Positions 2,185 to 14,870 of a stretch of DNA of 16,241 nucleotides are shown one piece after another. How positions within the stretch are numbered: position 1 is the first letter of the stretch; each line of letters begins with the position of its first letter. Under the pieces are notes generated by a model. The model was given only the letters and a program-made list of their open reading frames with translations, did not search any database and was not told where the DNA came from. The position numbers were made by a program, and so were the translations under genes. The stretch comes from Kofleriaceae bacterium (GTDB taxonomy: Bacteria; Myxococcota_A; Polyangia; Haliangiales; Haliangiaceae), in contig DASTLB010000022.1 of NCBI GenBank assembly GCA_035715365.1, positions 1 through 16,241 on the forward strand, read 5' to 3'.

Positions 2185-4038
2185 TCACTCGGTCGATCGC
2201 TTCAAGATCAGGAAGTCGACACGTCGGTTCTTCGCCCACGCGGCCTCGGTGTGCGCCTTCTCGACGGGCTGGGTCTCGCCGTAGCCCTGCGACTCGAGGC
2301 GTTTGTCCTCGACGCCGTGCTCGATCAGGTACTGCTTCACCGCGGCGGCGCGGCGGATCGAGAGGTCGAGGTTGTAGGCGTCGTCGCCGCGCTCGTCGGT
2401 GTGACCGGCGACCTCGACGAGCGTGATGTCCGGGTTGCCCTTCAGCGATGCGACCACGGCGTCGAGGATGTGGAAGCTGTCCGACTTGATCACGGCCTTG
2501 TTGAACTCGAAGTTGATCGGCTCGAGGATCACGAGCTGCGAGCCCTTGTCGATCACCGGGCCGCGATCCGGACAGCCGTCGGTGTCATCGACGCCGTTGT
2601 AGACCTCCTTCTCGTTCGGGCAGCGATCGTTGACGTCGAGGATGCGGTCCTTGTCGTTGTCGGTGTCCGGGCAGCCGTCCTCGTCCTCGAACTTGTCCCA
2701 GTCCTCCGGCGTGTCGGGGCAGAGGTCGTCGACGTCGAGGATCTTGTCGTTGTCGTTATCGTTGTCCGGGCAGCCGTCGTCGTCCTGGAAGCCGTCGTAG
2801 TCCTCCGGCTCGTCGGGACACTTGTCGACGGTGTCGTCGATCTTGTCGCCGTCGCGATCGTTCGCGGTGCCGTCGGGGCAACCGTCGGCATCCTGAAAGC
2901 CGTTGTAGTTCTCCGGGATCAACGGGCACTTGTCGTCGACGTCGAGGATGCGATCGCGATCGTTGTCCGGATCGGGGCAGCCGTCCTCGTCCTCGAAGTC
3001 GTCGCGATCCTCGGGCTCGGTCGGGCAGCGATCGACATCGTCCTTGAGGCCGTCGCCGTCGCGATCGCCGAGGTTCGGCTCGAACACGATGCCGACGAAC
3101 GCGCGCAGGTCGGGGTTCGCGCCCTTGCTCGGTGCGAGCCCGCGGCCGCCGCCGAGCGACAGGTAGCTGTTGCGCGCGAGGTAGAGCTTGACGCCGCCGA
3201 TTGCCTCGAGCGGCTGGTACGCCTCGCTGTTGCCGAGCGGCAGCGCGCCGAACACCTCGGCGACGACATCGAACTTCTGCGGTGTCACCGCGTACGCGAT
3301 GCCGAACCCGAACGGGATCTCCGGGCCGGCGCTGATCGTCTGGTTCGTCGGCGGCGCGCCCATGTCGCCGAGATCGGTGAACGTCGACTCCGGGCGCAGC
3401 CGGATGCCGGCGTTGATCGCCATGCGGAGCCGGCGCTCGCGGCCGAATTCCTTGTCGAGGATGCCGACGAGCTGCGGCGTCAGCTTCTTCTCGCCCATGA
3501 AGCGCTCGGGGCTCGCGGTCGGCAGGAACACGCTCGCGACCACGCCGAGCCCGACGCCGGGCGGCCGGCTCGACTTGAGGAACCGCGTCTTCAGGTGGAG
3601 GCCGGCGTTGCCGATGCCTTGACCGTCGAGCTTGTAGTCCTGATCGTCGTTCGGGTTGTCGAGCGCGCCGAGGTTGTCGGGGCCGCGATCGCCGGACAGG
3701 ATCGTGAGCGGCAGCGACGCGCCGAGCTCGAGATCCGCGGGCCCGAGCTTCAGGCCATACGCGGCGATCAGCGTCGCGGTCACGATGTTGTCGACGCTGT
3801 ACGTCGCATCGCCGCTCTGGAACGCGAGCAGGCGGTGGCCCCACGACAGCGAGCCGAGGCCGAACGAGACCTCGTTCTTGCCGAGCGTCTGCGACGCGTT
3901 GATCGTCAGGTAGCCGCGCGAGTCGATCGCCGGTCGAAACGGCTCGAGTGCGAGGTCGCCGGCGGGTTGGGCCGACGCGCTCGCGCTCAGCGTGCACAGA
4001 ACTGCAGACAGACGAAGGGCCGTGGCCAGGCGTGGCAT
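2185..4038 (-). CDS. OmpA-family outer-membrane protein: N-terminal beta-barrel-like region, about seven thrombospondin type-3 (TSP3) Ca-binding repeats, and a C-terminal OmpA peptidoglycan-binding domain.
   Basis: The start is moved to the internal ATG 4038, which gives the signal peptide MPRLATALRLSAVLCTLSASASA and a good SD (aaaggaacgtccATG). Repeated DxDxDGxxDxxDxCP units occur (e.g. DRDGDGLKDDVDRCP, DNDRDRILDVDDKCP). The C-terminus VEVAGHTDERGDDAYNLDLSIRRAAAVKQYL…NRRVDF is a canonical OmpA domain. Confidence 0.85.
   Translation of the reverse strand: MPRLATALRLSAVLCTLSASASAQPAGDLALEPFRPAIDSRGYLTINASQTLGKNEVSFGLGSLSWGHRLLAFQSGDATYSVDNIVTATLIAAYGLKLGPADLELGASLPLTILSGDRGPDNLGALDNPNDDQDYKLDGQGIGNAGLHLKTRFLKSSRPPGVGLGVVASVFLPTASPERFMGEKKLTPQLVGILDKEFGRERRLRMAINAGIRLRPESTFTDLGDMGAPPTNQTISAGPEIPFGFGIAYAVTPQKFDVVAEVFGALPLGNSEAYQPLEAIGGVKLYLARNSYLSLGGGRGLAPSKGANPDLRAFVGIVFEPNLGDRDGDGLKDDVDRCPTEPEDRDDFEDEDGCPDPDNDRDRILDVDDKCPLIPENYNGFQDADGCPDGTANDRDGDKIDDTVDKCPDEPEDYDGFQDDDGCPDNDNDNDKILDVDDLCPDTPEDWDKFEDEDGCPDTDNDKDRILDVNDRCPNEKEVYNGVDDTDGCPDRGPVIDKGSQLVILEPINFEFNKAVIKSDSFHILDAVVASLKGNPDITLVEVAGHTDERGDDAYNLDLSIRRAAAVKQYLIEHGVEDKRLESQGYGETQPVEKAHTEAAWAKNRRVDFLILKRSTE
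2545..3075 (-). repeat. In-frame tandem coding repeats (TSP3 units of about 70–100 nt) inside the OmpA-family gene.
   Basis: Recurring nucleotide blocks (gtccgggcagccgtcctcgtcctcgaa… / gtcgtcgacgtcgaggat…) correspond to DxDxDG…CPD peptide repeats. Confidence 0.7.
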
Positions 4039-4205
4039 GGACGTTCCTTTGGCAAGCGCGGTCACCGAAATCACGGCGGCCACGCGACGGGGATTGTCCA
4101 GAAAGTGCACGGACAGCTCGTCCGGGTTACACGCGTCGATCTCGCCGGGAGCGCACGCGTTTTGGGGTTGCACGATGGCGCGCGTCCCGCATACCACCGC
4201 ACTCC

Positions 4206-5516
4206 ATGTACAGCACGCTCGACTCGATCGACATCGTCGCGACCGACAAGGCCACCGGCCAGGAGATCTACGTCCAGACCGATCATCGCCAGCGTGACGA
4301 GCTCGAGTCCGAGCCCGAGATCACCGTGCTGTTCGGGCTGACGCGCATCCTCAAGGCGCACGAGTACGCGGCGAACAAGGGTGCGAAGGGACGCGTCGTG
4401 TACGCCGGGTTCGCCGACGATCCGCCGGCGTTCTTGCTCGAGCTGATCGCGGTCGCGGGCGGCGAGTACGAGCGCGCGAGCGATCAGACGTACCTGCCGC
4501 TGCAGGCGTCGAAGCGCACCGCGTCCGAGCTCGCCGACGAGGCGTATCGCGGGCTCGCGAAGCGCGTGCAGGAGCGCGTCGGGCTGAGCGACTGGGCCGC
4601 GGTGCTCAACGCGCTCCAGGCCGAGACGCTGACCGAGCCGCCGGACAAGGACGAGGATCAGATCGGCTACTGGACGCGCGTCGCCGAGCTCGCGGCCGTG
4701 ACCGGTGAGCTGCTGCGCGGCCGCAACCAGGGCAAGTGGGTGCAGATGGCCGAAGCCGACATCCCGTTCGGCTTCCAGTGCTCCGACGGCTCGGTGCTGC
4801 TGCCGACGAACCGTGCCCAGCGGTTCATCGCCGACGGCGAGGACGAGTCGATGTTCCGGCTGATCGAGCTCGACAACGATCGCGAGGCGATCACGAACGG
4901 CCCGCGCACGATGCTGCCGAGCTTGCGCGCGAAGTCCGATGCGCTGCGCGAGAAGATGGTGCACCGCGCGCTGCTGCAGAACGCCGGCGACAACCCCGAC
5001 ATCCCCGTGATCGTGTACGGCAACGACACGCCGCAGTCGTTCGGCATCATGAAGGAGCCGACGACCGAGGACGTCGAGAAGATCCACGCCGAGGCGCTCG
5101 CGAACATCGCGAAGCAGGAAGTCACCGTCGACGACGTCGAGGTCGGTGGCGTCAAGGTGCTCGCGGTCAGCGGCAGCTTCTACGCGACCGAGAAGCTGCT
5201 CGACGTCGCGTTCATGAAGACGCTGCACCGCCGGCTCGGCAACGAGATGCTCGTCGCGAGCGTGCCGCGGCGCGGCCTGATGTTCGTCGCGAACGGCGTC
5301 GATCCCGATCCGCGCCAGGTCGCGACCGTGCTCCGCGTGATGACCGATCACGAGTCGGGCACGACGCGCAGCATCAGCAAGGCGCTGCTGATCGTGATGA
5401 ACGGCGACGTCGTCGGGCACGTCCAGATGCAGACGTCCGAGGACGGCGAGCCGCCGATGCCGCCGCCCGAGAAGAAGAAGCCGAGCTTCTTGCGCCGGCT
5501 GTTCGGTCGCGCGTAA
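4206..5516 (+). CDS. Conserved hypothetical cytoplasmic protein of 436 aa. Its C-terminal third may be DUF1444/YtpQ-like (low confidence).
   Basis: High GC3 and a coding-like frame with no signal peptide. The first ATG not overlapping the divergent gene (4206) gives MYSTLDSIDIVATDK. The C-terminal pattern LLDVAFMKTLHRRLGNEMLVASVPRRGLMFVANG…ALLIVMNGDVVGHV is recalled similarity only. No named catalytic motif was found. Confidence 0.55.
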   Translation: MYSTLDSIDIVATDKATGQEIYVQTDHRQRDELESEPEITVLFGLTRILKAHEYAANKGAKGRVVYAGFADDPPAFLLELIAVAGGEYERASDQTYLPLQASKRTASELADEAYRGLAKRVQERVGLSDWAAVLNALQAETLTEPPDKDEDQIGYWTRVAELAAVTGELLRGRNQGKWVQMAEADIPFGFQCSDGSVLLPTNRAQRFIADGEDESMFRLIELDNDREAITNGPRTMLPSLRAKSDALREKMVHRALLQNAGDNPDIPVIVYGNDTPQSFGIMKEPTTEDVEKIHAEALANIAKQEVTVDDVEVGGVKVLAVSGSFYATEKLLDVAFMKTLHRRLGNEMLVASVPRRGLMFVANGVDPDPRQVATVLRVMTDHESGTTRSISKALLIVMNGDVVGHVQMQTSEDGEPPMPPPEKKKPSFLRRLFGRA

Positions 5517-5526: not shown

Positions 5527-6306
5527 ATGTGCAAGTGGTTCGTCGCGGTGACGCTCGTCATCGTGTCGGCGTGGTCGCGTCCCGCGAGCGCGCAGATCGT
5601 CAATGTCCAGGGCCAGCTCGCAAAGCCGCCCGCCACCGACGGCGCGCGCGCCCAGCTCGAGCTCGCGCTCAACTGGCGCGAAGGTAATAACCCGATCTTC
5701 GAGGGGGCGGCAGCCGGCGCGGTGCTCGTCCGCGAAGGTCGCGGGCTGTACCTGCTGATCGCGCGCGGCGAGTACGGCGAGAGCCGCGGCGTCACGCTCG
5801 CGCGCAAGACGTTCGAGCACCTGCGCGCCCGGGTCTCGATCGACGGCCCGTGGAAGTGGGAGGCGTTCCTGCAGCACGAGTACGACGCGTTCCGCCGGCT
5901 CAGCGTGCGCGGCGTCGCCGGCACCGGCCCGGCGTACCAGATCGTCGACGAGAAGACCGTCACGATGCTCGCTGGCGCGGCGGTGATGGCCGAGTACGAG
6001 GCCCTCGACGACCGCGCCGGCACGATCGACGCCGGCGAGACGAGCCTCGTCGCGCGCGCGTCGCTCTACGTCACCGGCACCGAGTCGATCGGCGAAGGCG
6101 TGTCGATCGTCGAGACCGTCTACGTCCAGCCTCGGCTCGACGAGCCCGGCGACGTCCGGCTGCTCGGCGAGCTCGCGGTGACGAGCAAGCTGAGCAAGCG
6201 CGTCGCCCTCACCGACGGCCTCACGGTCGCCTACGACCGAACGCCGCCCGACGGGATCAAGACGTACGACACGCAGCTCAAGGTCGGCGTGATCGTCACG
6301 TTCTGA
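5527..6306 (+). CDS. Outer-membrane beta-barrel protein, DUF481 (YdiY-like) candidate.
   Basis: 259 aa. Signal peptide MCKWFVAVTLVIVSAWSRPASAQ. Alternating amphipathic beta-strand pattern. C-terminal …KVGVIVTF ends in an aromatic residue typical of the OMP beta-signal. Size matches DUF481 proteins. Confidence 0.55.
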   Translation: MCKWFVAVTLVIVSAWSRPASAQIVNVQGQLAKPPATDGARAQLELALNWREGNNPIFEGAAAGAVLVREGRGLYLLIARGEYGESRGVTLARKTFEHLRARVSIDGPWKWEAFLQHEYDAFRRLSVRGVAGTGPAYQIVDEKTVTMLAGAAVMAEYEALDDRAGTIDAGETSLVARASLYVTGTESIGEGVSIVETVYVQPRLDEPGDVRLLGELAVTSKLSKRVALTDGLTVAYDRTPPDGIKTYDTQLKVGVIVTF

Positions 6307-6413
6307 CGCACGCACCCTCCTCGTCGCACCCTGGATCCGGCGCGGTGCCGACCCGCTGTCGCGCGAGCGCACGTGACGATCGCGCCTGCCGACACGTCGG
6401 TGCAGCGTCGGGC

Positions 6414-6437
6414 GCGAGCGGAATGGCGAGCGGAATG
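6414..6437. repeat. Perfect 12-bp tandem direct repeat (GCGAGCGGAATG x2) in the intergenic region upstream of the small tail-anchored gene pair.
   Basis: Read directly: gcgagcggaatggcgagcggaatg at 6414–6437. It is a candidate operator or direct-repeat binding site. Confidence 0.5.
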
Positions 6438-6478
6438 ACGTGCTCCGGAGGCACGACGTCTGCACTCGTCGGACGGTC

Positions 6479-6823
6479 ATGACATGGGAGCCGGAGGAAC
6501 CGACCTGCAAGATGCAGCGTGACGAGCTGCTCGGGTTGGTTCATGCATCGCGCGGAGTCGAGGTCCAGGAACCCACCTCGGTGATGTCGGCCGTCAGCCT
6601 CGAGGATCTGCTGCGGCAGGACCCCGAGCTGGCGCGCATCGCGAACGGCACACCGGCGACACCGATGCCGGCCGTCCAGCCGCCGATCACGCCGAGCGAG
6701 CCAGAAGTCCGCGTCGCCGCCGGCACCGGTACTGCGCTGCCGCCGCCGCGGCGATGGCCGGTGATCGTCGTCAGCTGTATCGTCACGCTCGGCGCCGGCG
6801 TGATGCTCGGGATGCTGATGTGA
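6479..6823 (+). CDS. Small tail-anchored membrane protein with one Rho_N-like (helix-extended-helix) motif, a Pro-rich linker and a C-terminal TM helix.
   Basis: MQRDELLGLVHASRGVEVQEPTSVMSAVSLEDLLRQD fits the Rho termination factor N-terminal domain pattern (sELxxLa…g…s.m.k.eLI..lLrq). The C-terminus WPVIVVSCIVTLGAGVMLGMLM is hydrophobic. GC3 is coding-like. The start is uncertain (ATG 6479, ATG 6512, or the track's 6440). Confidence 0.45.
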   Translation: MTWEPEEPTCKMQRDELLGLVHASRGVEVQEPTSVMSAVSLEDLLRQDPELARIANGTPATPMPAVQPPITPSEPEVRVAAGTGTALPPPRRWPVIVVSCIVTLGAGVMLGMLM

Positions 6824-7287
6824 GCGAGTCACGCGCCCCCGCACCGCCGCCTCAGCTCGCGTTGCCGATCCGCGCGCCGCGTCGACGAGCGGCCGAGGTC
6901 GCGAGCGCGCTCGGCTATCCGGCCGGCGAGTCGACCGAGTCGGAGACGCTACCCGGCAAGAAGCAGCGCCGCGAGCCCAGGCCGCTCGAGACAACCGCGC
7001 GCATGAGCCAGCCCGAGCTGCTCGAGCTCGTGAGGCTCACCTCGGGGCGGCCGCGCCGGACCTCGGAGATGCAACGTCCGGAGCTGATCGGCCTGCTGCG
7101 CCAGGACCTCGAGCTCGACGCGACGCCGGTGCCCGCGGGCGCCGAGTCGGATCGCGTCGTCGCGATCGATCCGGAGGCGACCGAGCTCGTCGGCCACCGG
7201 ACCGAGATCGAGTCGCGGCTCGCGCTCGGCGTCGCGTTTCTCGCCGCGGTGTTCACCGGCGTACTGCTGACGATCCCGTTCTGGTGA
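6820..7287 (+). CDS. Paralogous small tail-anchored protein: a Pro/Arg-rich N-terminus, a Rho_N-like motif and a C-terminal TM helix.
   Basis: The GTG start at 6820 overlaps the upstream stop (ATGTGA). MSQPELLELVRLTSGRPRRTSEMQRPELIGLLRQD is a strong Rho_N-like match. The C-terminus LALGVAFLAAVFTGVLLTIPFW is a TM helix. The start could instead be an internal ATG such as the MSQPELL Met. Confidence 0.45.
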   Translation: MSESRAPAPPPQLALPIRAPRRRAAEVASALGYPAGESTESETLPGKKQRREPRPLETTARMSQPELLELVRLTSGRPRRTSEMQRPELIGLLRQDLELDATPVPAGAESDRVVAIDPEATELVGHRTEIESRLALGVAFLAAVFTGVLLTIPFW

Positions 7288-10071
7288 TCACGGCTTGTTC
7301 ACCGCCTGCGGCGCCGCGTTGCCGGTCGGCTTCGGCAGCTTGATGCCGCCGAGCCACGCGCGCAGCTCCGGCTCGAGCAGCTTGCGGCGCGCGATGCACT
7401 GGTCCATGCGCTCGATCGCCTGCTTGACGACGCGCGGTCCGCCCGGCAGCTTGCCGAACGTCTTCGTGACGTAGTCGGCGATCGCGTCGCGCTGGTCGGC
7501 TGCGCACGACCACGTGTAGATGTACGCGAGCCCGGCGAGCGGCCCTGCGGTGTCGTCGGTCGGCACGCGCTTCATCACCTCTTCGTGATGCTCGCGGAAG
7601 AACTGCTGCGCGACCGTGTGATTCATCCGCGTCGTGCTGTTGCCGAAGATGTCGAGCGTCTCGCGAATGTCGAGCTTCGGATCGAGCACGAGCGCGAGCG
7701 CCTGCTTCTGACGCTCGACATCGCGCACCGACGCGAGCGCCGAGAACATCTCGCCGCGCCGGGTGCGATCCGGCTCGGTGTAGACGTCCTTGCGGATCTT
7801 CTCGAAGAACTCGGGCTTCGCATCGACGGCGATGTGCAGCACGAGCTCGCGGATCGACTGCGGCAGATCGCGCCACTTGTCGGACAGCTTCACCGCCTCG
7901 TCGACGAGCATGGGGTCGCGACCGATCCACGCGACCGCATGCAGCAGCTCGAGCCTCGTGATCTCGACGTCGAGCGTGTCCTTCGCGCGCGGCGTGAACC
8001 CGGCCTTGCGCGCTCCGGGGCCAAACGTCGTGCGCACCCACGCCTCGTACTTCGGCAGCAGCTCGTCGGGCACGAAGTCGCGGATCCAGATCGAGAAGTC
8101 GAGCGCGGGCGGTACCGTGAACCGATCGTTGCCGGCGAGCAGCTTCGGCACGAACGACAGCGCGGTCGCCAGCGGCAGCTTGCCGCTCGTTGCGAGATCG
8201 GTGACGTCGAAGTACAGCGTGCGGCGCTCGGTCCACGACAGCTTCGGCCACGCCTCGTCACGCAGCGCGGTGACCTGCGCCGTCGTGTACGGCGAGCGGT
8301 AGTAGCCGCGGCCGTTGACGTTCGGGTGCATCCACCGCGGGCACGCCTTCGTCTTCGACGCCGGCAGCTCGAGCGTGCCGGTCTCCGCCGACAGCAGCGT
8401 GCATGCCTCGCCGCGCGCGCCGCCGCCCTTGTCGTAGACGACGCACACCGGGACGATCCACGGCTTGCCCGCCGGCGGCGTCGGCGAGCCCGGCGGCACG
8501 TAGCGCTTCTGCGCGAGCGCGACGCTCGCCTTGCCGCCCTGGCACGACAGCGTCGCGGTGATCTCCGGCGCGCCCGCCTGCTCGAGGAACGAGGCGAACG
8601 CGGCGTCGACATCCTTGCCCGACGCCTGCGAGATCGACTGCGCGAAGTCGGTCGACGTCGCGTTGCCGTACGCGTGCTTCGCGAGGTGATCGCGCACGCC
8701 CTTCTGGAACACGTCGGCGCCGAGATAGCTCTCGAACATCGCGAGCACGCTCGCGCCCTTGTCGTACGTGATGCCGTCGAACGCGGTCAGGATATCGTCG
8801 GTGCTCTCGATCGGCTGGCGGATCTGGCGCGCGCTGACGATCGCGTCGGCGTTGAGCGCGTCGTTGCGCATCGTCAGCTCGGCCTGATCGTCGCGGTACG
8901 TCGGATCGATCTTCGCCGACGCCTTCGACTCGACCCAGTTCGCGAAGCCCTCGTTGAGCCAGATGTCGTCCCAGTACTTCATCGTCACGAGATCGCCGAA
9001 CCACTGGTGCGCGATCTCGTGCGCCGCGACGACGACGTAGCGGTGCTCGCGCTCCTTCGAGGCCTTGACCGGATCGATCAGGATCAGCCGCTCGGTGAAC
9101 GTGATGAGGCCTGCGTTCTCCATCGCGCCGAACCCGACGGTGAGCGGGATCGACATCAGGTCGAGCTTCTCGTACGGATAGGGCGAGCCGAACCAGTCCT
9201 CGAGTAGCTCGAGCAGCCGCGGCGAGGTCTTCGCGGCCCACGCACCCTCGGCGCGGCGCTTCGCGAGCGTGATCACGCGCACCGGGGTGCCGCGCTTCGT
9301 CTTGCCGGCATCGACGATCTCGAACGGCCCGACGCCGAACGCGACGAGGTACGACGGCAGCGGCTTGGTCTGCGCGAACTCGACGCGCTTCATCGTGTCG
9401 GAGACCTGGCTCTCGCCGGTCTGCGGCGTGTTCGAGACCGCGACGAGCGGCTTCGGGACGTCGAGCGTCAGCTTCCACGGCACCTTGTTGTCGGGCTCGT
9501 CGAAGCACGGAAAGATCCGCCGCGCGTACAGCGCCTCGAGCTGGGTGAACACGTATGACTGATCGGCCACGATCTGCTTGAACGCGCCCGCCGTGTTCAG
9601 CTTGTCGAGCTCGCCCTTGTAGTCGATCGCGAGCGTCCACGCGCCCGGGTCGAGCGGCTTCTGCGCGCGGATCTCGAGGAAGTCCTCGCCCTTCGGCGTC
9701 ACCGCGAGCGCGACCTCGACGCCGGCCTGCTGGGCGACCGCCTTGCGGATCGTCAGCTTGCGGCCGTGCAGCCAGATCACGCTCGAGCGTTCGCTGACCT
9801 CGCCCGCGATCTGGATCGAGCCGTCGAAGTCATCGCGCTTCGGATCGATCACGAGCCGCGCGGCATAGCTCGTCGGCAGAAAGTTGCGCGGCAGGCGCAG
9901 CGTCGGTTGTGGTGGCGCGAGCGCGTCCCCTTGCTTCGTCGGCTTCGGCTCCGCGGTGCCCTCGGTGGCACCGGTCCCGACGGGCGCGGGCACCGTCACG
10001 CTCGGCTTGGGGGGACCGCACGCGACGAGCGACGCGACGAGGGCGACAAGGCAGCGCTGCATGGCGCGCAT
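7288..10071 (-). CDS. M1-family zinc metallopeptidase (aminopeptidase N-like) lipoprotein.
   Basis: 927 aa. Exopeptidase motif FGAMENAGLITF. Zinc-binding motif VVAAHEIAHQWFGDLVT…WLNEGFANW (HExxH-x18-E). N-terminus MRAMQRCLVALVASLVAC has a lipobox (LVAC). Confidence 0.9.
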   Translation of the reverse strand: MRAMQRCLVALVASLVACGPPKPSVTVPAPVGTGATEGTAEPKPTKQGDALAPPQPTLRLPRNFLPTSYAARLVIDPKRDDFDGSIQIAGEVSERSSVIWLHGRKLTIRKAVAQQAGVEVALAVTPKGEDFLEIRAQKPLDPGAWTLAIDYKGELDKLNTAGAFKQIVADQSYVFTQLEALYARRIFPCFDEPDNKVPWKLTLDVPKPLVAVSNTPQTGESQVSDTMKRVEFAQTKPLPSYLVAFGVGPFEIVDAGKTKRGTPVRVITLAKRRAEGAWAAKTSPRLLELLEDWFGSPYPYEKLDLMSIPLTVGFGAMENAGLITFTERLILIDPVKASKEREHRYVVVAAHEIAHQWFGDLVTMKYWDDIWLNEGFANWVESKASAKIDPTYRDDQAELTMRNDALNADAIVSARQIRQPIESTDDILTAFDGITYDKGASVLAMFESYLGADVFQKGVRDHLAKHAYGNATSTDFAQSISQASGKDVDAAFASFLEQAGAPEITATLSCQGGKASVALAQKRYVPPGSPTPPAGKPWIVPVCVVYDKGGGARGEACTLLSAETGTLELPASKTKACPRWMHPNVNGRGYYRSPYTTAQVTALRDEAWPKLSWTERRTLYFDVTDLATSGKLPLATALSFVPKLLAGNDRFTVPPALDFSIWIRDFVPDELLPKYEAWVRTTFGPGARKAGFTPRAKDTLDVEITRLELLHAVAWIGRDPMLVDEAVKLSDKWRDLPQSIRELVLHIAVDAKPEFFEKIRKDVYTEPDRTRRGEMFSALASVRDVERQKQALALVLDPKLDIRETLDIFGNSTTRMNHTVAQQFFREHHEEVMKRVPTDDTAGPLAGLAYIYTWSCAADQRDAIADYVTKTFGKLPGGPRVVKQAIERMDQCIARRKLLEPELRAWLGGIKLPKPTGNAAPQAVNKP

Positions 10072-10138: not shown

Positions 10139-11008
10139 CTACTCCGCGATCGCCTGGCCGCAGCAGTGCTTCCACTTCTGCATCGAGCCGCACAGACACA
10201 GATCGTTGCGACCGAGCTTCTTCGGCCGGAGCCGGGCGACCTCGCGCGGTGATGGAAACTTGATCGGGCGCGCCGCGCGTCCGATCGCCTCGGCAGCCTC
10301 GAACTGCGCCGCGATCTCGTCGAGCTTGGCGTCGGTGAACCACGCACGCGCCTCGTCCTCGAGCTTGTGCGCGAGCGCGAGGTAGCGGCGCGTGTGCTGC
10401 GCGTGATCGTAGTGCGCGACGCGCCGGTAGCCCGGCGGCACGTCGACGAGCGCGTTGCCTCCCGCGAAGCCATACGTGCCGACCTCGCGCGCCGGCAGCA
10501 GCGTCCACTCGATCTGGAACAGCCGGTACGCGACGGCGCCGAGCCCGACGAACGCGCGCGCCTCGTTCTGGTTGAACGGATGCAGGTATGCCGCCTCCTC
10601 GGTCGGCTCGACCGATTCGGGAACGCCGTACGGCAAGCCGACCGGGGTGCCGTAGTTCGGCGCGCGCGGATCGCCGCACACGGCGTGGATGAGCTCGTGG
10701 ACGCAGAACCCGAGCAGCCGGCTGTGAATGCAGCCGCCGTCGCGCACGGCGACCCACTTGACCTCGCCGAGCTGCTGCTGGATCCGCCACAGCGTCGGTG
10801 CCGCGAGATCCCAGATCACCGTCTGGCCCCAGCCGCGCATCGCATCGTCGAACCGGTACAGCGCTTCGATGCCGGCGACGCGCTCGTCGTACGACAGCTG
10901 CTCGTGACAGCGGCACGCGCACGGCAACGGAAGCTGGACCGCATCTACGACGGTGGCGGGCACCTCACGAGCTTGCCAGCGCGCGAAGCTGCCGTCGACC
11001 GCTTGCAC
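10139..11008 (-). CDS. SEC-C metal-binding motif protein with an N-terminal HExxH-containing domain.
   Basis: C-terminal RNDLCLCGSMQKWKHCCGQAIAE is a SecA C-terminal-type Cys4/His zinc motif. Internal FCVHELIHAVCGD is an HExxH. The GTG start at 11008 is uncertain; an internal ATG (MRGWGQ…) is an alternative. Confidence 0.6.
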   Translation of the reverse strand: MQAVDGSFARWQAREVPATVVDAVQLPLPCACRCHEQLSYDERVAGIEALYRFDDAMRGWGQTVIWDLAAPTLWRIQQQLGEVKWVAVRDGGCIHSRLLGFCVHELIHAVCGDPRAPNYGTPVGLPYGVPESVEPTEEAAYLHPFNQNEARAFVGLGAVAYRLFQIEWTLLPAREVGTYGFAGGNALVDVPPGYRRVAHYDHAQHTRRYLALAHKLEDEARAWFTDAKLDEIAAQFEAAEAIGRAARPIKFPSPREVARLRPKKLGRNDLCLCGSMQKWKHCCGQAIAE

Positions 11009-11458: not shown

Positions 11459-12313
11459 GTGGCCAGCTACGCGTTCCGTATCGTCAACGTATTCACCGTC
11501 GACGGCGACCGGTTCTCCGGTAACCCGCTGTGCGTGTTCGAGGATGCGCGCGGGCTGGCCGATGGCCAGATGCAGGCGCTCGCGCGGCAGATGAACCTGT
11601 CGGAGACGACGTTCGTGCTGCCTCCCGCCGGCGGCGGCGACGCGCACGTCCGGATCTTCACGCCGGGCTTCGAGATGCCGTTCGCGGGCCACCCGACGCT
11701 CGGCACCGCGAGTGTCGTCGCGCGCGGCCGCGACCGCGTCGTGCTCGAGATGCGCGCCGGGCTCGTCGAGGTCACGACGCGCGACGGCGCGTACGAGCTG
11801 CGGACCGCGAAGCCGCCGGCGACACGCGCCGTCGACGGAACGCGCGCCGAGCTCGCGCGCATGCTGAGCTTGCCGGAGGCCGCGATCGCGGGCGAGCCGC
11901 TGTGGGTCTCGACCGGCACCGAACAGCTCGTGATTCCGATCGCGTCGCGGGAGCACGTGCGCGCCGCGAGACCGGTCGTCGACGAGATGCACCGGCTCGC
12001 GACGTCACCGACGCGCGAGGAGGCGATGGCGTATCTGTGGGCCGCGGGCACCGCCGACGATCCGGAGCACCTCGTGCGGTTCTTCTTCACGATCGGCTCG
12101 AGCGTGCTCGAGGATCCGGCGACCGGCTCGGCGTGCGCGAACCTCGGCGGCTACATCGTCGCGACGCGGCACGCGCTGCCGTACCAGGCGACGCTGCGCC
12201 AGGGCGAGGCGGTCGCCCGGCCGTCGCGGCTGCACCTGCGGGTCGACGCGAGTGGTGGGATCTTCGTCAGTGGCGCCGTGATCGAGCTCGGTCGCGGTGT
12301 CGTCGACGTGTAA
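11459..12313 (+). CDS. PhzF-family (phenazine biosynthesis-like, DAP-epimerase fold) isomerase.
   Basis: 284 aa. RIVNVFTVDGDRFSGNPLCVF; ETTFVLPP; FTPGFEMPFAGHPTLG; EDPATGSA. These are the conserved PhzF/YddE family blocks. The start is GTG 11459, immediately after an in-frame TAA. Confidence 0.85.
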   Translation: MASYAFRIVNVFTVDGDRFSGNPLCVFEDARGLADGQMQALARQMNLSETTFVLPPAGGGDAHVRIFTPGFEMPFAGHPTLGTASVVARGRDRVVLEMRAGLVEVTTRDGAYELRTAKPPATRAVDGTRAELARMLSLPEAAIAGEPLWVSTGTEQLVIPIASREHVRAARPVVDEMHRLATSPTREEAMAYLWAAGTADDPEHLVRFFFTIGSSVLEDPATGSACANLGGYIVATRHALPYQATLRQGEAVARPSRLHLRVDASGGIFVSGAVIELGRGVVDV

Positions 12314-13397: not shown

Positions 13398-14870
13398 GTG
13401 GCACGTCCGGTGCTCCTCGCTGGCGGCGTGCTGAGGCTGGCTGCTCTGGTATCCGTGCTCGGGTTCGGGCTCGTCGCGTGCGCGACCGACGGCGACGTCG
13501 CCGGCGAGGATCCGAACGCGGGCCTGCTGCGCGACTTTCTCGACGGCAAGTACGACGCCGCCGGTCACCCGCTGAACGCGAAGGTGATCGAGGCCGAGGA
13601 CGCGTGTCCGTCGGCCGGACCGGTCGGCGACGGCGCGCTCGAGCTCCGCGCGGCCTGCGAGGCCGCGATCCCCGACGGCGCGAAGACCGGCGATCTCGTC
13701 GCGAACGTGCGGCTGCGCGTGCGCACCGCGCCCGAGCGCGGGACGATCGCGACCGTGTCGCTCGTCGACGCGAGCGGCAGCGAGCTCGCGAAGGAGACGC
13801 TGACGGTGTCGCGGCTGCGGGCGCGGGGCGCGTGGATCGATGTCGCGGCGAAGCTCGCGAGCGTGGGTACCGCGGCGCGCGTGCGGATCACGCCGGCCGC
13901 GGGCGCGGTCGTCGACGTCGACTACGTCGAGATCTTTCCGTCGCACTTCGGGCTCGTGATCGCGCCCGGCAGCGGCGTGCTCGGCGACACCGAGCACCTG
14001 ACGTTCGAGGTGCCGCGCTATCGCCGGCTCGAGACGCTCGAGGCCGACGGCGTCGATCTCCTGCCGCGGCTCGACGCGCTCGTGTCGCAGGGTCGCGCGA
14101 CGCGCACGACGACCGCGTTTCGCACGCTGATCGACGTCGCGGTCGCCGACTTGCTGCCGGATCGCGGCGAGGTCGTCGAGCTGCGCGCGAAGGCCGGGAG
14201 CCAGGCGGCGCGTGCGCAGCTCCGCCGTGCGGCGCCGGCATGCAACTTCGAGGGCGATCCGGCCGCGGCGACGAAGGTGCTCGTCACCGGCTTCCAGCCG
14301 TTCCCCGCCGACGGCTGGCACGACAACGTCTCTGGCGTCGCGGTCACCGCGATGAACCCCGCGAGCCTGCGCGACGCGCGCGTGATGCGGCTCGTGCTGC
14401 CGGTCGAGTACGACCGCGCGGCGGCGCAGATCGCCGACGTGATCGCGCGCTGCGCGCCCGACGTCGTGATCAGCTTCGGTCAGGGCGGCGGCGCGATCGC
14501 GCTCGAGCGGACCGCGTACAACCTGCAGGACACCGGCGAGATCGCCGGCGGCGTCCCCGACAACCGCGGCATCGTGCGCGCGGCCGCGCCGATCGACGAG
14601 GCGGCGCCGGCGACGCGCGCGACGCTGCTGCCGCTGCCCGAGATCCGCAGCGCGCTCGAGGCGCTCGGCGAGTCGCCCCAGGACTCGACGGACCCCGGCC
14701 GCTACATCTGCAACAACGTCATGTTCGTCGACATCGCGACGATGGAGGCGCGCGGTGGCCGCGCCGGCTTCATCCACCTCCCGTACACGACGAGCTTCGA
14801 CGACAGCGTGCGCGCGCGCTACGCCAAGGTCGTCGAGGCCGCGATCCAGGCGACCGTCGACGCGCCGTAG
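13398..14870 (+). CDS. Lipoprotein with a novel ~270-aa N-terminal region and a C-terminal pyroglutamyl-peptidase I (peptidase C15, Pcp)-like domain with a complete catalytic triad.
   Basis: GTG start. VARPVLLAGGVLRLAALVSVLGFGLVAC has a lipobox. The C-terminal domain aligns to Pcp: KVLVTGFQPF; PDVVISFGQGGGAIALERTAYN (Glu); DPGRYICNNVMF (Cys); RAGFIHLPY (His). Confidence 0.7.
   Translation: MARPVLLAGGVLRLAALVSVLGFGLVACATDGDVAGEDPNAGLLRDFLDGKYDAAGHPLNAKVIEAEDACPSAGPVGDGALELRAACEAAIPDGAKTGDLVANVRLRVRTAPERGTIATVSLVDASGSELAKETLTVSRLRARGAWIDVAAKLASVGTAARVRITPAAGAVVDVDYVEIFPSHFGLVIAPGSGVLGDTEHLTFEVPRYRRLETLEADGVDLLPRLDALVSQGRATRTTTAFRTLIDVAVADLLPDRGEVVELRAKAGSQAARAQLRRAAPACNFEGDPAAATKVLVTGFQPFPADGWHDNVSGVAVTAMNPASLRDARVMRLVLPVEYDRAAAQIADVIARCAPDVVISFGQGGGAIALERTAYNLQDTGEIAGGVPDNRGIVRAAAPIDEAAPATRATLLPLPEIRSALEALGESPQDSTDPGRYICNNVMFVDIATMEARGGRAGFIHLPYTTSFDDSVRARYAKVVEAAIQATVDAP

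Follow-up and report, generated by a model that had tools for sequence, protein, structure and literature searches.

The stretch of DNA considered here (hereafter the window) comprises 16,241 nt from a metagenome-assembled genome (MAG) of a Kofleriaceae bacterium (Myxococcota) and has a GC content of ~70%. Two adjacent open reading frames (ORFs) on its forward strand, ORF1 (6479..6823; 114 aa; VFQ53_07640) and ORF2 (6820..7287; 155 aa; VFQ53_07645), are both designated as hypothetical proteins in the annotation of this MAG. An initial annotation, made by reading the sequence, described their products as small membrane proteins, each with a motif of the Rho_N/helix-extended-helix (HeH) type, a Pro-rich linker and a single C-terminal transmembrane (TM) helix. 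Re-reading of the sequence and hydropathy analysis upheld the two adjacent ORFs, the exact peptide motifs quoted for them and the single C-terminal TM helix of each. ORF1 occupies a single frame that opens at ATG 6479 (the NCBI call, giving 114 aa) or at ATG 6512 (the start used in the initial annotation, giving 103 aa) and closes with TGA 6821-6823. ORF2 runs from GTG 6820, again the NCBI call, to TGA 7285-7287. The overlap described earlier between this candidate GTG start (6820-6822) and the stop codon of ORF1 (6821-6823) is present, within ...CTGATGTGAGC.... In-frame alternatives for ORF2 are TTG 6862 and ATG 7003; use of the latter would drop conserved residues, and TTG 6862 is the only start besides GTG 6820 that retains the family-conserved residues before Met62.

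ORF1 and ORF2 are real, paralogous genes. The GC contents of codon positions 1, 2 and 3 in ORF1 were 0.71, 0.52 and 0.85, and third-position GC (GC3) was 0.94 in the core of ORF2 and 0.85 in its N-terminal extension, the best of the three frames there, in support of a coding role for both ORFs, including this extension. BLASTP aligned the two products across the motif region, at 43% identity over 61 aa (E=2e-5). The basic extension of ORF2 (6820-6981) is lineage-specific; these first 54 residues have no homologue and are unique within the family described below. No DNA similarity was detected between the region upstream of ORF1 and this extension, which gives no indication that the extension was copied from the ORF1 leader.

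Both proteins are predicted to be tail-anchored at the inner membrane. Each has one hydrophobic stretch, at residues 95-113 of ORF1 (TM helix, 6761-6817) and residues 134-152 of ORF2 (TM helix, 7219-7275), with a mean Kyte-Doolittle hydropathy of 2.46 in both cases and only one and three residues following it, respectively. Every member of the family likewise contains a single hydrophobic 19-mer (mean hydropathy of 1.9-2.6) with 0-7 residues behind it. An Arg or Lys ahead of the TM helix is nearly invariant, which points to a topology with the N-terminus inside. The sequences thus show the features of a tail anchor, i.e. no N-terminal signal or hydrophobic segment and one TM helix at the extreme C-terminus. 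Bacterial tail-anchored membrane proteins (TAMPs) are known, for example, from a catalogue for Streptomyces coelicolor (PMC3087755) and from work in E. coli (PMC6794478). As with these bacterial TAMPs, ORF1 and ORF2 are small, lack an N-terminal signal sequence, have a single far-C-terminal TM helix and are predicted to be cytoplasmic for most of their length; TAMPs are, however, an architectural class and not a homologous family, and the N-terminal domain (N-domain) of ORF1 and ORF2 matches no described TAMP. The Pro-rich linker of the initial annotation is evident in ORF1 (6617-6760; 10 Pro in ~44 residues) and holds only weakly for ORF2 (3 in ~37).

Relatives of the pair were sought at several levels. 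Word-index homology searches with ORF1 and ORF2 returned self-matches only, and a scan of genome contigs with ORF2 peptides returned nothing. A HMMER search with an ORF1+ORF2 profile against 1.84 billion representative proteins identified six relatives of 102-118 aa that aligned end-to-end, with E-values of 2e-9 to 2e-5. An eight-sequence profile search added only one further protein (P0010, 77 aa), and a metagenome scan with an alignment of the ORF1 subtype added the loci L034 and L035. No further copies were found among the six-frame ORFs of 27 syntenic Kofleriaceae loci, which had been fetched via the M1 peptidase encoded beside the pair; a small ORF in one of these (L011, 8782-9033), which begins with 'REELLGW', was unrelated to the family (E=4.9). 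All members share a common plan, in which a short leader precedes a conserved block of ~45 residues and a variable Pro/Ala-rich linker connects this block to the C-terminal TM helix, and full-length relatives with the same length and architecture occur in at least five independent lineages. Two subtypes are discernible. ORF1, P0006, P0007 and P0010 carry 'RDELLGL' and a '...GIATG...' tail, and ORF2, P0003, P0004, P0005, P0008 and L034 have a '...LT[IV]P[LIF]W' tail, indicating that the window holds one gene of each old subtype and not a recent duplicate. This is a small, undescribed family of proteins of ~80-120 aa that has so far been encountered only in Kofleriaceae-like high-GC soil Myxococcota. 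Scans of the family against Pfam, NCBIfam and PHROGs gave nothing meaningful. Weak matches to anti-sigma, ParD, DEC-1 and SgmX models were discarded as being restricted to a single member, far below the cut-off, or located in the linker or TM helix; the anti-sigma factor match, for example, was found only for P0010 and scored 12.7 bits against a cut-off of 100 over the linker and TM helix. The database start of P0008 is apparently nine codons late (L031 683 / L032 186), and an upstream in-frame ATG restores the leader 'MRRDDPTFRM', which is conserved in the family.

The conserved block consists of two 14-residue units, T-x-(R/E)-(M/I)-x3-(E)-L-x2-L-(L/V)-x, which lie 24 residues apart when the family alignment is compared with itself by column. 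The best ungapped 14-column self-match scored 17.0 as compared to 2.6±2.8 (maximum 13.2) in 2000 column shuffles, indicating that the N-domain arose by internal duplication. In the window, the units correspond to 6503-6544 and 6575-6616 of ORF1 and to 6994-7035 and 7060-7101 of ORF2. AlphaFold2 placed a helix on each unit and a further helix on the TM segment, at low confidence (pLDDT of 58.8 and 64.1 with 2 and 9 sequences, respectively); P0010 lacks the helix of the second unit. Values of dN/dS for whole genes (0.34-0.9) were uninformative until the genes were split by region. For the N-domain, dN/dS was 0.07-0.19 within the P0003/P0008/L034 subgroup, 0.25 between ORF2 and P0005 and 0.51 between P0006 and P0007. 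The linker had a dN/dS of ~1 and the TM region was constrained in composition only, indicating that the soluble N-domain is the selected, functional part of these proteins. The net charge of this domain ranges from -8 to +1 (pI 4.1-8.2) across ten members and is strongly acidic in the ORF1 subtype.

A putative sigma-54-type promoter element (GGCACGACGTCTGCA) is located immediately upstream of ORF1 at 6450..6464 (+), with the -24 GG at 6450-6451 and the -12 GC at 6462-6463. The sequence AGGCACG-ACGT-CTGCA (6449-6464) agrees with the sigma-54 consensus TGGCACG-N4-TTGC(T/A) (PMC7910581, PMC9765219) at 10 of 12 positions and has the canonical GG/GC spacing. The core pattern GGCAY-N6-TGCA has this single match in the window when both strands are counted, where 0.15 matches are expected. 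This -24/-12 element is conserved as a sequence across the family. GGCA(C/T)-N6-TGCA is found 9-20 nt before the start codon of every family member for which DNA is available, and each of the eight homologue loci (L028-L035) contains it exactly once, on the coding strand and just upstream of the gene. For P0008, the corrected ATG lies 16 nt past the -12 GC. Six matches were present in the 289 kb of the 27 syntenic Kofleriaceae loci, and five of these precede one orthologous gene for a Ser/Thr protein kinase (Pkinase, E=1e-39) in five different MAGs, with the element 12-13 nt before the ATG (L007 2131-2145(-), L008 11030-11044(+), L012 10649-10663(+), L021 9901-9915(-) and L024 11113-11127(+)). 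The placement before both kinase and family genes indicates that GGCAY-N6-TGCA marks conserved promoters and is not background. Assuming the usual distance of ~12 nt from the -12 C, transcription would start near 6475 with a 4-nt leader before ATG 6479, so that the mRNA would be leaderless or nearly so.

Homologues of the ORF2 type carry their own element; ORF2 of the window has none at the corresponding place upstream of the conserved domain. This lack, together with the start options at GTG 6820 and TTG 6862, makes an operon, possibly with translational coupling, the simplest reading, and ORF1 and ORF2 are probably co-expressed. The best site near ORF2 is CGGCAC-CGGTAC-TGCG at 6721-6736 (+), inside ORF1, which matches the consensus at 8 of 12 positions and contains both the GG and the GC. 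It lies 18 nt upstream of an ATG (6754) in the ORF2 frame, and third-position GC gives no support for translation from this codon. The site could be an internal promoter for ORF2 or a chance match; sigma-54 promoters are frequently intragenic in M. xanthus (PMC7910581).

The perfect 12-bp tandem repeat reported upstream of ORF1 in the initial annotation was recovered with TRF (GCGAGCGGAATG x2; 6414..6437; score 48, 100% match); it precedes the -24 GG by 13-36 bp. There is no other perfect tandem duplication with a period of 10-20 bp in the window, for which first-order Markov simulations predict 0.013 perfect repeats with a period of at least 12, and no other good copies of the 12-bp unit are present. 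Enhancer-binding proteins recognise tandem repeats that are typically 80-150 bp upstream of the promoter (PMC7910581). The repeat is a candidate site for such an activator or another regulator, or may be a slippage duplication. A comparison of upstream regions across the homologues revealed no shared repeats and no Nla28-like half-site pairs. The sequence GATCGC is frequent upstream of the family genes and has a background of 4.3 per kb.

A second, stronger sigma-54-type element (TGGCACG-TCCG-GTGCT; 13399-13414 (+)) matches the consensus at 11 of 12 positions. It is located 14 nt upstream of an in-frame GTG (13428) that opens a lipoprotein-like signal peptide, VLRLAALVSVLGFGLVAC, in an ORF carrying a Peptidase_C15 domain. 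The near-leaderless geometry is as at ORF1, and the mechanical start of this ORF at 13398 is probably too far upstream.

The origin of the pair was examined by comparison with the 27 related loci, none of which contains a family member. In three of them, the gene for a DUF481 outer-membrane protein and the M1 aminopeptidase gene, which flank the pair in the window, are convergent and directly adjacent (tblastn and ORF maps), separated by 4 bp in L004 and by 42 bp in L015 and overlapping in L013, with no ORFs between them. In DNA alignments, the 3' end of the DUF481 gene is retained up to its TGA; the relatives then continue with the 3' end of the M1 gene, whereas the window contains 981 unrelated bases (6307..7287 (+), bounded by the stop codons of the DUF481 gene and of the convergently oriented M1 gene). 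At the DUF481/M1 junction, the pair is thus an addition specific to this lineage. Two other loci differ from the window and most loci in this region, with the M1 peptidase gene inverted relative to SEC-C/PhzF in L002 and L003 and a 451-aa gene between DUF481 and M1 in L003; the M1 junction is a rearrangement hot spot in these genomes. Elsewhere, members of the P0003/P0008/L034 subgroup are divergent from a gene for a protein with two WGR domains and leucine-rich repeats (WGR E=1e-36; L030 1-357, L031 326-451, L034 1187-2917 and L035 725-2653, all on the minus strand), which is the only conserved neighbour for any subgroup. P0007 and P0010 are near M16 and M28 peptidases, P0006 adjoins an alpha/beta hydrolase, and no context contains a sigma-factor gene adjacent to the family gene. 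Across the family, no conserved functional partner emerges.

The N-terminal motifs were previously read as Rho_N/SAP/LEM-class HeH domains that could tether DNA or RNA to the inner membrane, and this reading was tested. No match at E<=10 to Pfam models PF07498, PF02037, PF03020 or PF12949 was obtained for ORF1, ORF2, the six relatives or the isolated 52-residue domain of ORF2. As positive controls, nine HeH-class fragments of ~50 aa were used, of which the E. coli Rho N-terminus was the only one checked against PDB chains; all nine exceeded the gathering score (24.9 bits for Rho_N, PF07498), at 27-65 bits, and several weakly matched each other's models. Scores were 65, 61 and 47 bits for the Rho N-terminal fragments of E. 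coli, B. subtilis and M. tuberculosis, respectively, 47.6, 26.9, 36.8 and 52.0 bits for the fragments of SAF-A, PIAS1, Ku70 and Tho1, and 58.4 and 62.3 bits for the emerin LEM and Src1 HeH fragments. Profile comparison with hhalign gave probabilities for the family N-domain of 1.2% against Rho_N (13 columns), 0.4% against SAP, 0.5% against LEM and 0.2% against HeH, as compared to 76% over 34 columns for Rho_N versus SAP; the power of this test is low with such small alignments and single-sequence LEM and HeH templates, and SAP versus HeH also scored <1%. A profile search of the PDB returned designed helical repeats only (E>=0.036), and neither sequence nor fold comparison with the PDB linked the domain to Rho, SAP or LEM. 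There are points of likeness. The low-confidence AlphaFold2 models contain two short helices separated by a linker of ~11 residues, and, as in HeH-class motifs, two short predicted helices with Leu-rich faces and a non-helical linker lie within ~45 residues; eukaryotic LEM/HeH domains also sit on membrane proteins. By eye, there is a likeness between 'TSEMQRPELIGLLRQ' and the second helix of Rho_N ('ARMRKQDIIFAILKQ'), and the sole hhalign alignment to Rho_N pairs the first repeat unit of the family with that helix. Unlike in the HeH class, however, the two helices of the family repeat one another in sequence and are joined by a longer linker without a conserved Gly; the family domain ranges from acidic to neutral, and helix 2 is missing altogether in P0010. 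The Rho_N/HeH assignment is thus unsupported, as is the proposed binding of nucleic acids, and, although the shortness of the motif and the weakness of the models limit these tests, we consider a genuine HeH domain with a tethering role unlikely. Absence of HeH similarity and absence of the ORFs from the orthologous region of three related genomes were both findings that the initial annotation had itself set against its reading; a lack of coding conservation, which it had also named, was not observed, as the N-domain is under purifying selection. A variant of the tethering idea, in which an HeH-like module too divergent for recognition by sequence or low-confidence structure methods enables ORF1 and ORF2 to hold nucleic acid, or a component of the nucleoid or ribosome, at the inner membrane under sigma-54 control, appears more doubtful still; such a pair would, if real, be a bacterial analogue of the LEM/HeH proteins of the inner nuclear membrane.

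Alternative origins for the pair were also considered. Small membrane proteins that lie in a lineage-specific block at the DUF481/M1 junction, and whose relatives occur in unrelated contexts, could represent cargo that belongs to a mobile or selfish element, or what is left of a phage, e.g. a holin- or toxin-like membrane pair. Searches for relatives in IMG/VR viral contigs, PHROG and plasmids were negative (no significant match in the case of PHROG), and the ends of the block contain no integrase, transposase, tRNA or flanking direct or inverted repeats. It is, moreover, the soluble N-domain and not the TM helix that is conserved, and a conserved sigma-54-type promoter of the chromosomal kind travels with the gene, making an origin as mobile cargo rather improbable. 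High-GC DNA is also rich in fortuitous reading frames, with 76 ORFs of at least 60 aa in the 16 kb of the window, and one or both ORFs might be non-functional, either as chance ORFs of a 70% GC genome or as a decaying duplicate. In keeping with this, the frame signal of ORF1 is moderate (GC3 of 0.85 versus 0.63-0.80 in the other frames locally), ORF1 is the most divergent member of the family and the start of ORF2 is without a homologue. The recurrence of full-length relatives in separate lineages, the purifying selection on the N-domain, the retention of the promoter at a fixed distance from the start codon and the calling of both genes by the NCBI pipeline argue to the contrary, and of all the explanations considered non-functionality is the least probable.

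The explanation that we prefer is that ORF1 and ORF2 form a two-gene operon that would be transcribed from the sigma-54-type promoter at 6450-6464 as an mRNA almost without a leader. Expression would occur only when an enhancer-binding protein activates sigma-54, i.e. in response to a stress or developmental signal, and ORF2 would have lost its own promoter and be expressed by coupling to ORF1. The N-domain (~45 residues with two 14-residue amphipathic units) probably forms a cytoplasmic helical hairpin, joined to the TM anchor by a fast-evolving disordered linker. Such a hairpin would lack the size needed for stability on its own; probably it forms dimers or interacts with a partner. The N-domain may act as a membrane-held module for protein-protein interaction or dimerisation at the cytoplasmic face; a domain charge of -8 to +1 is more in keeping with the binding of proteins than of nucleic acids. 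The interaction may be between ORF1 and ORF2 themselves or, alternatively, with a cytoplasmic partner that is recruited or sequestered by the domain. The anatomy and regulation set out here are very probably correct, the specific functional proposal is tentative, and the explanation taken as a whole has about an even chance of being right.

Several observations weigh against this explanation. The N-domain of ORF1 is the most divergent of the family, with the R-x-T-S/A-E-M-P motif reading E-P-T-S-V-M-S, and its dN/dS values versus the nearest relatives (0.6-0.96) are saturated; ORF1 could be drifting. At the promoter, conservation does not extend to the -26 T or to the TT of the -12 box, dependence on sigma-54 is deduced from sequence only, and neither rpoN nor an activator gene was seen in the window. 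The 12-bp repeat is nearer to the promoter than is typical for an activator site, and no comparable repeat is present upstream of the homologues. In every other contig, most of which are ~1 kb or shorter, the family gene is single, indicating that pairing is not a property of the family. The protein-interaction role is drawn only from charge, the amphipathic repeats and the absence of other signals, and the structure models are of low confidence. No annotated homologue bearing on function was found, in agreement with the initial annotation, which had known of no described function for this architecture.

The preferred explanation, i.e. a membrane-held interaction module under sigma-54-type control, has parallels in two known systems. 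PspB, PspC and PspG of the enterobacterial phage-shock response are small, bitopic proteins of the inner membrane that have Leu-rich helices on the cytoplasmic side, act via protein-protein contacts and are expressed from sigma-54 promoters controlled by an enhancer-binding protein. They share no sequence similarity with ORF1 or ORF2 (no Pfam or NCBIfam match), the topology of PspB, with an N-terminal TM helix, is opposite, and the pair has neither pspA nor pspF as a neighbour; the likeness concerns the proposed mode of action only. ElaB, YqjD and YgaM (DUF883) of E. coli are tail-anchored, ribosome-associated, stress-linked proteins of ~100 aa with a helical cytoplasmic N-terminal part, and their expression is RpoS-regulated. 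ORF1 and ORF2 are alike in size, helical N-terminal part and C-terminal TM anchor; however, sequence similarity is again absent (no Pfam match) and the regulation of the E. coli proteins is of the RpoS rather than the sigma-54 type.

The gene order around the pair runs, from left to right, through genes for a GDSL lipase (955-2133, -), an OmpA-family protein (2185-4197, -), a protein without a Pfam match (4206-5516, +), the DUF481 outer-membrane protein (5527-6306, +), the ORF1-ORF2 pair (6479-7287, +), the M1 aminopeptidase (7288-10071, -), a SEC-C motif protein (10139-11008, -) and a PhzF-like protein (11459-12313, +). The gene without a Pfam match is a 436-aa ORF with a strong coding signal. 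In L004, L013 and L015, the OmpA-family and DUF481 genes are divergent and directly adjacent, with no such ORF between them, suggesting that the 436-aa ORF is another lineage-specific insertion next to DUF481. At 7285-7290 (TGA|TCA), ORF2 meets the convergent M1 aminopeptidase gene with zero intergenic bases, and no terminator-like structure was found on either strand at this junction. An imperfect 27-nt inverted repeat (6286-6312 / 6360-6386; 78% complementary, 47-nt loop) covers the DUF481 stop codon and the intergenic region upstream of ORF1. Shuffled sequences are predicted to fold as well as the intergenic sequence (6280-6480; z=0.33), an Rfam search of the window returned nothing, and a scan for sigma-70 promoters and terminators gave no match.

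These findings remove an attractive but unsupported annotation, i.e. that of a Rho_N/HeH domain with nucleic-acid binding. What is new is a ~45-residue cytoplasmic repeat domain on a tail anchor; the tail-anchored class and the sigma-54 regulatory class to which the proteins would belong are both known. The narrow distribution of the family and its lack of an assigned function limit its wider importance, and the conserved, start-codon-proximal sigma-54-type promoter is a more useful result than the HeH reading. A sigma-54-type element so close to the start codon is an unusually clear regulatory signature, and a scan restricted to sigma-70 promoters misses the relevant promoter class in the Kofleriaceae lineage. 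The same promoter-to-start geometry recurs at the kinase gene in five related genomes and at the lipoprotein gene in the window, suggesting that near-leaderless sigma-54 transcripts are a recurrent and common design in the Kofleriaceae.

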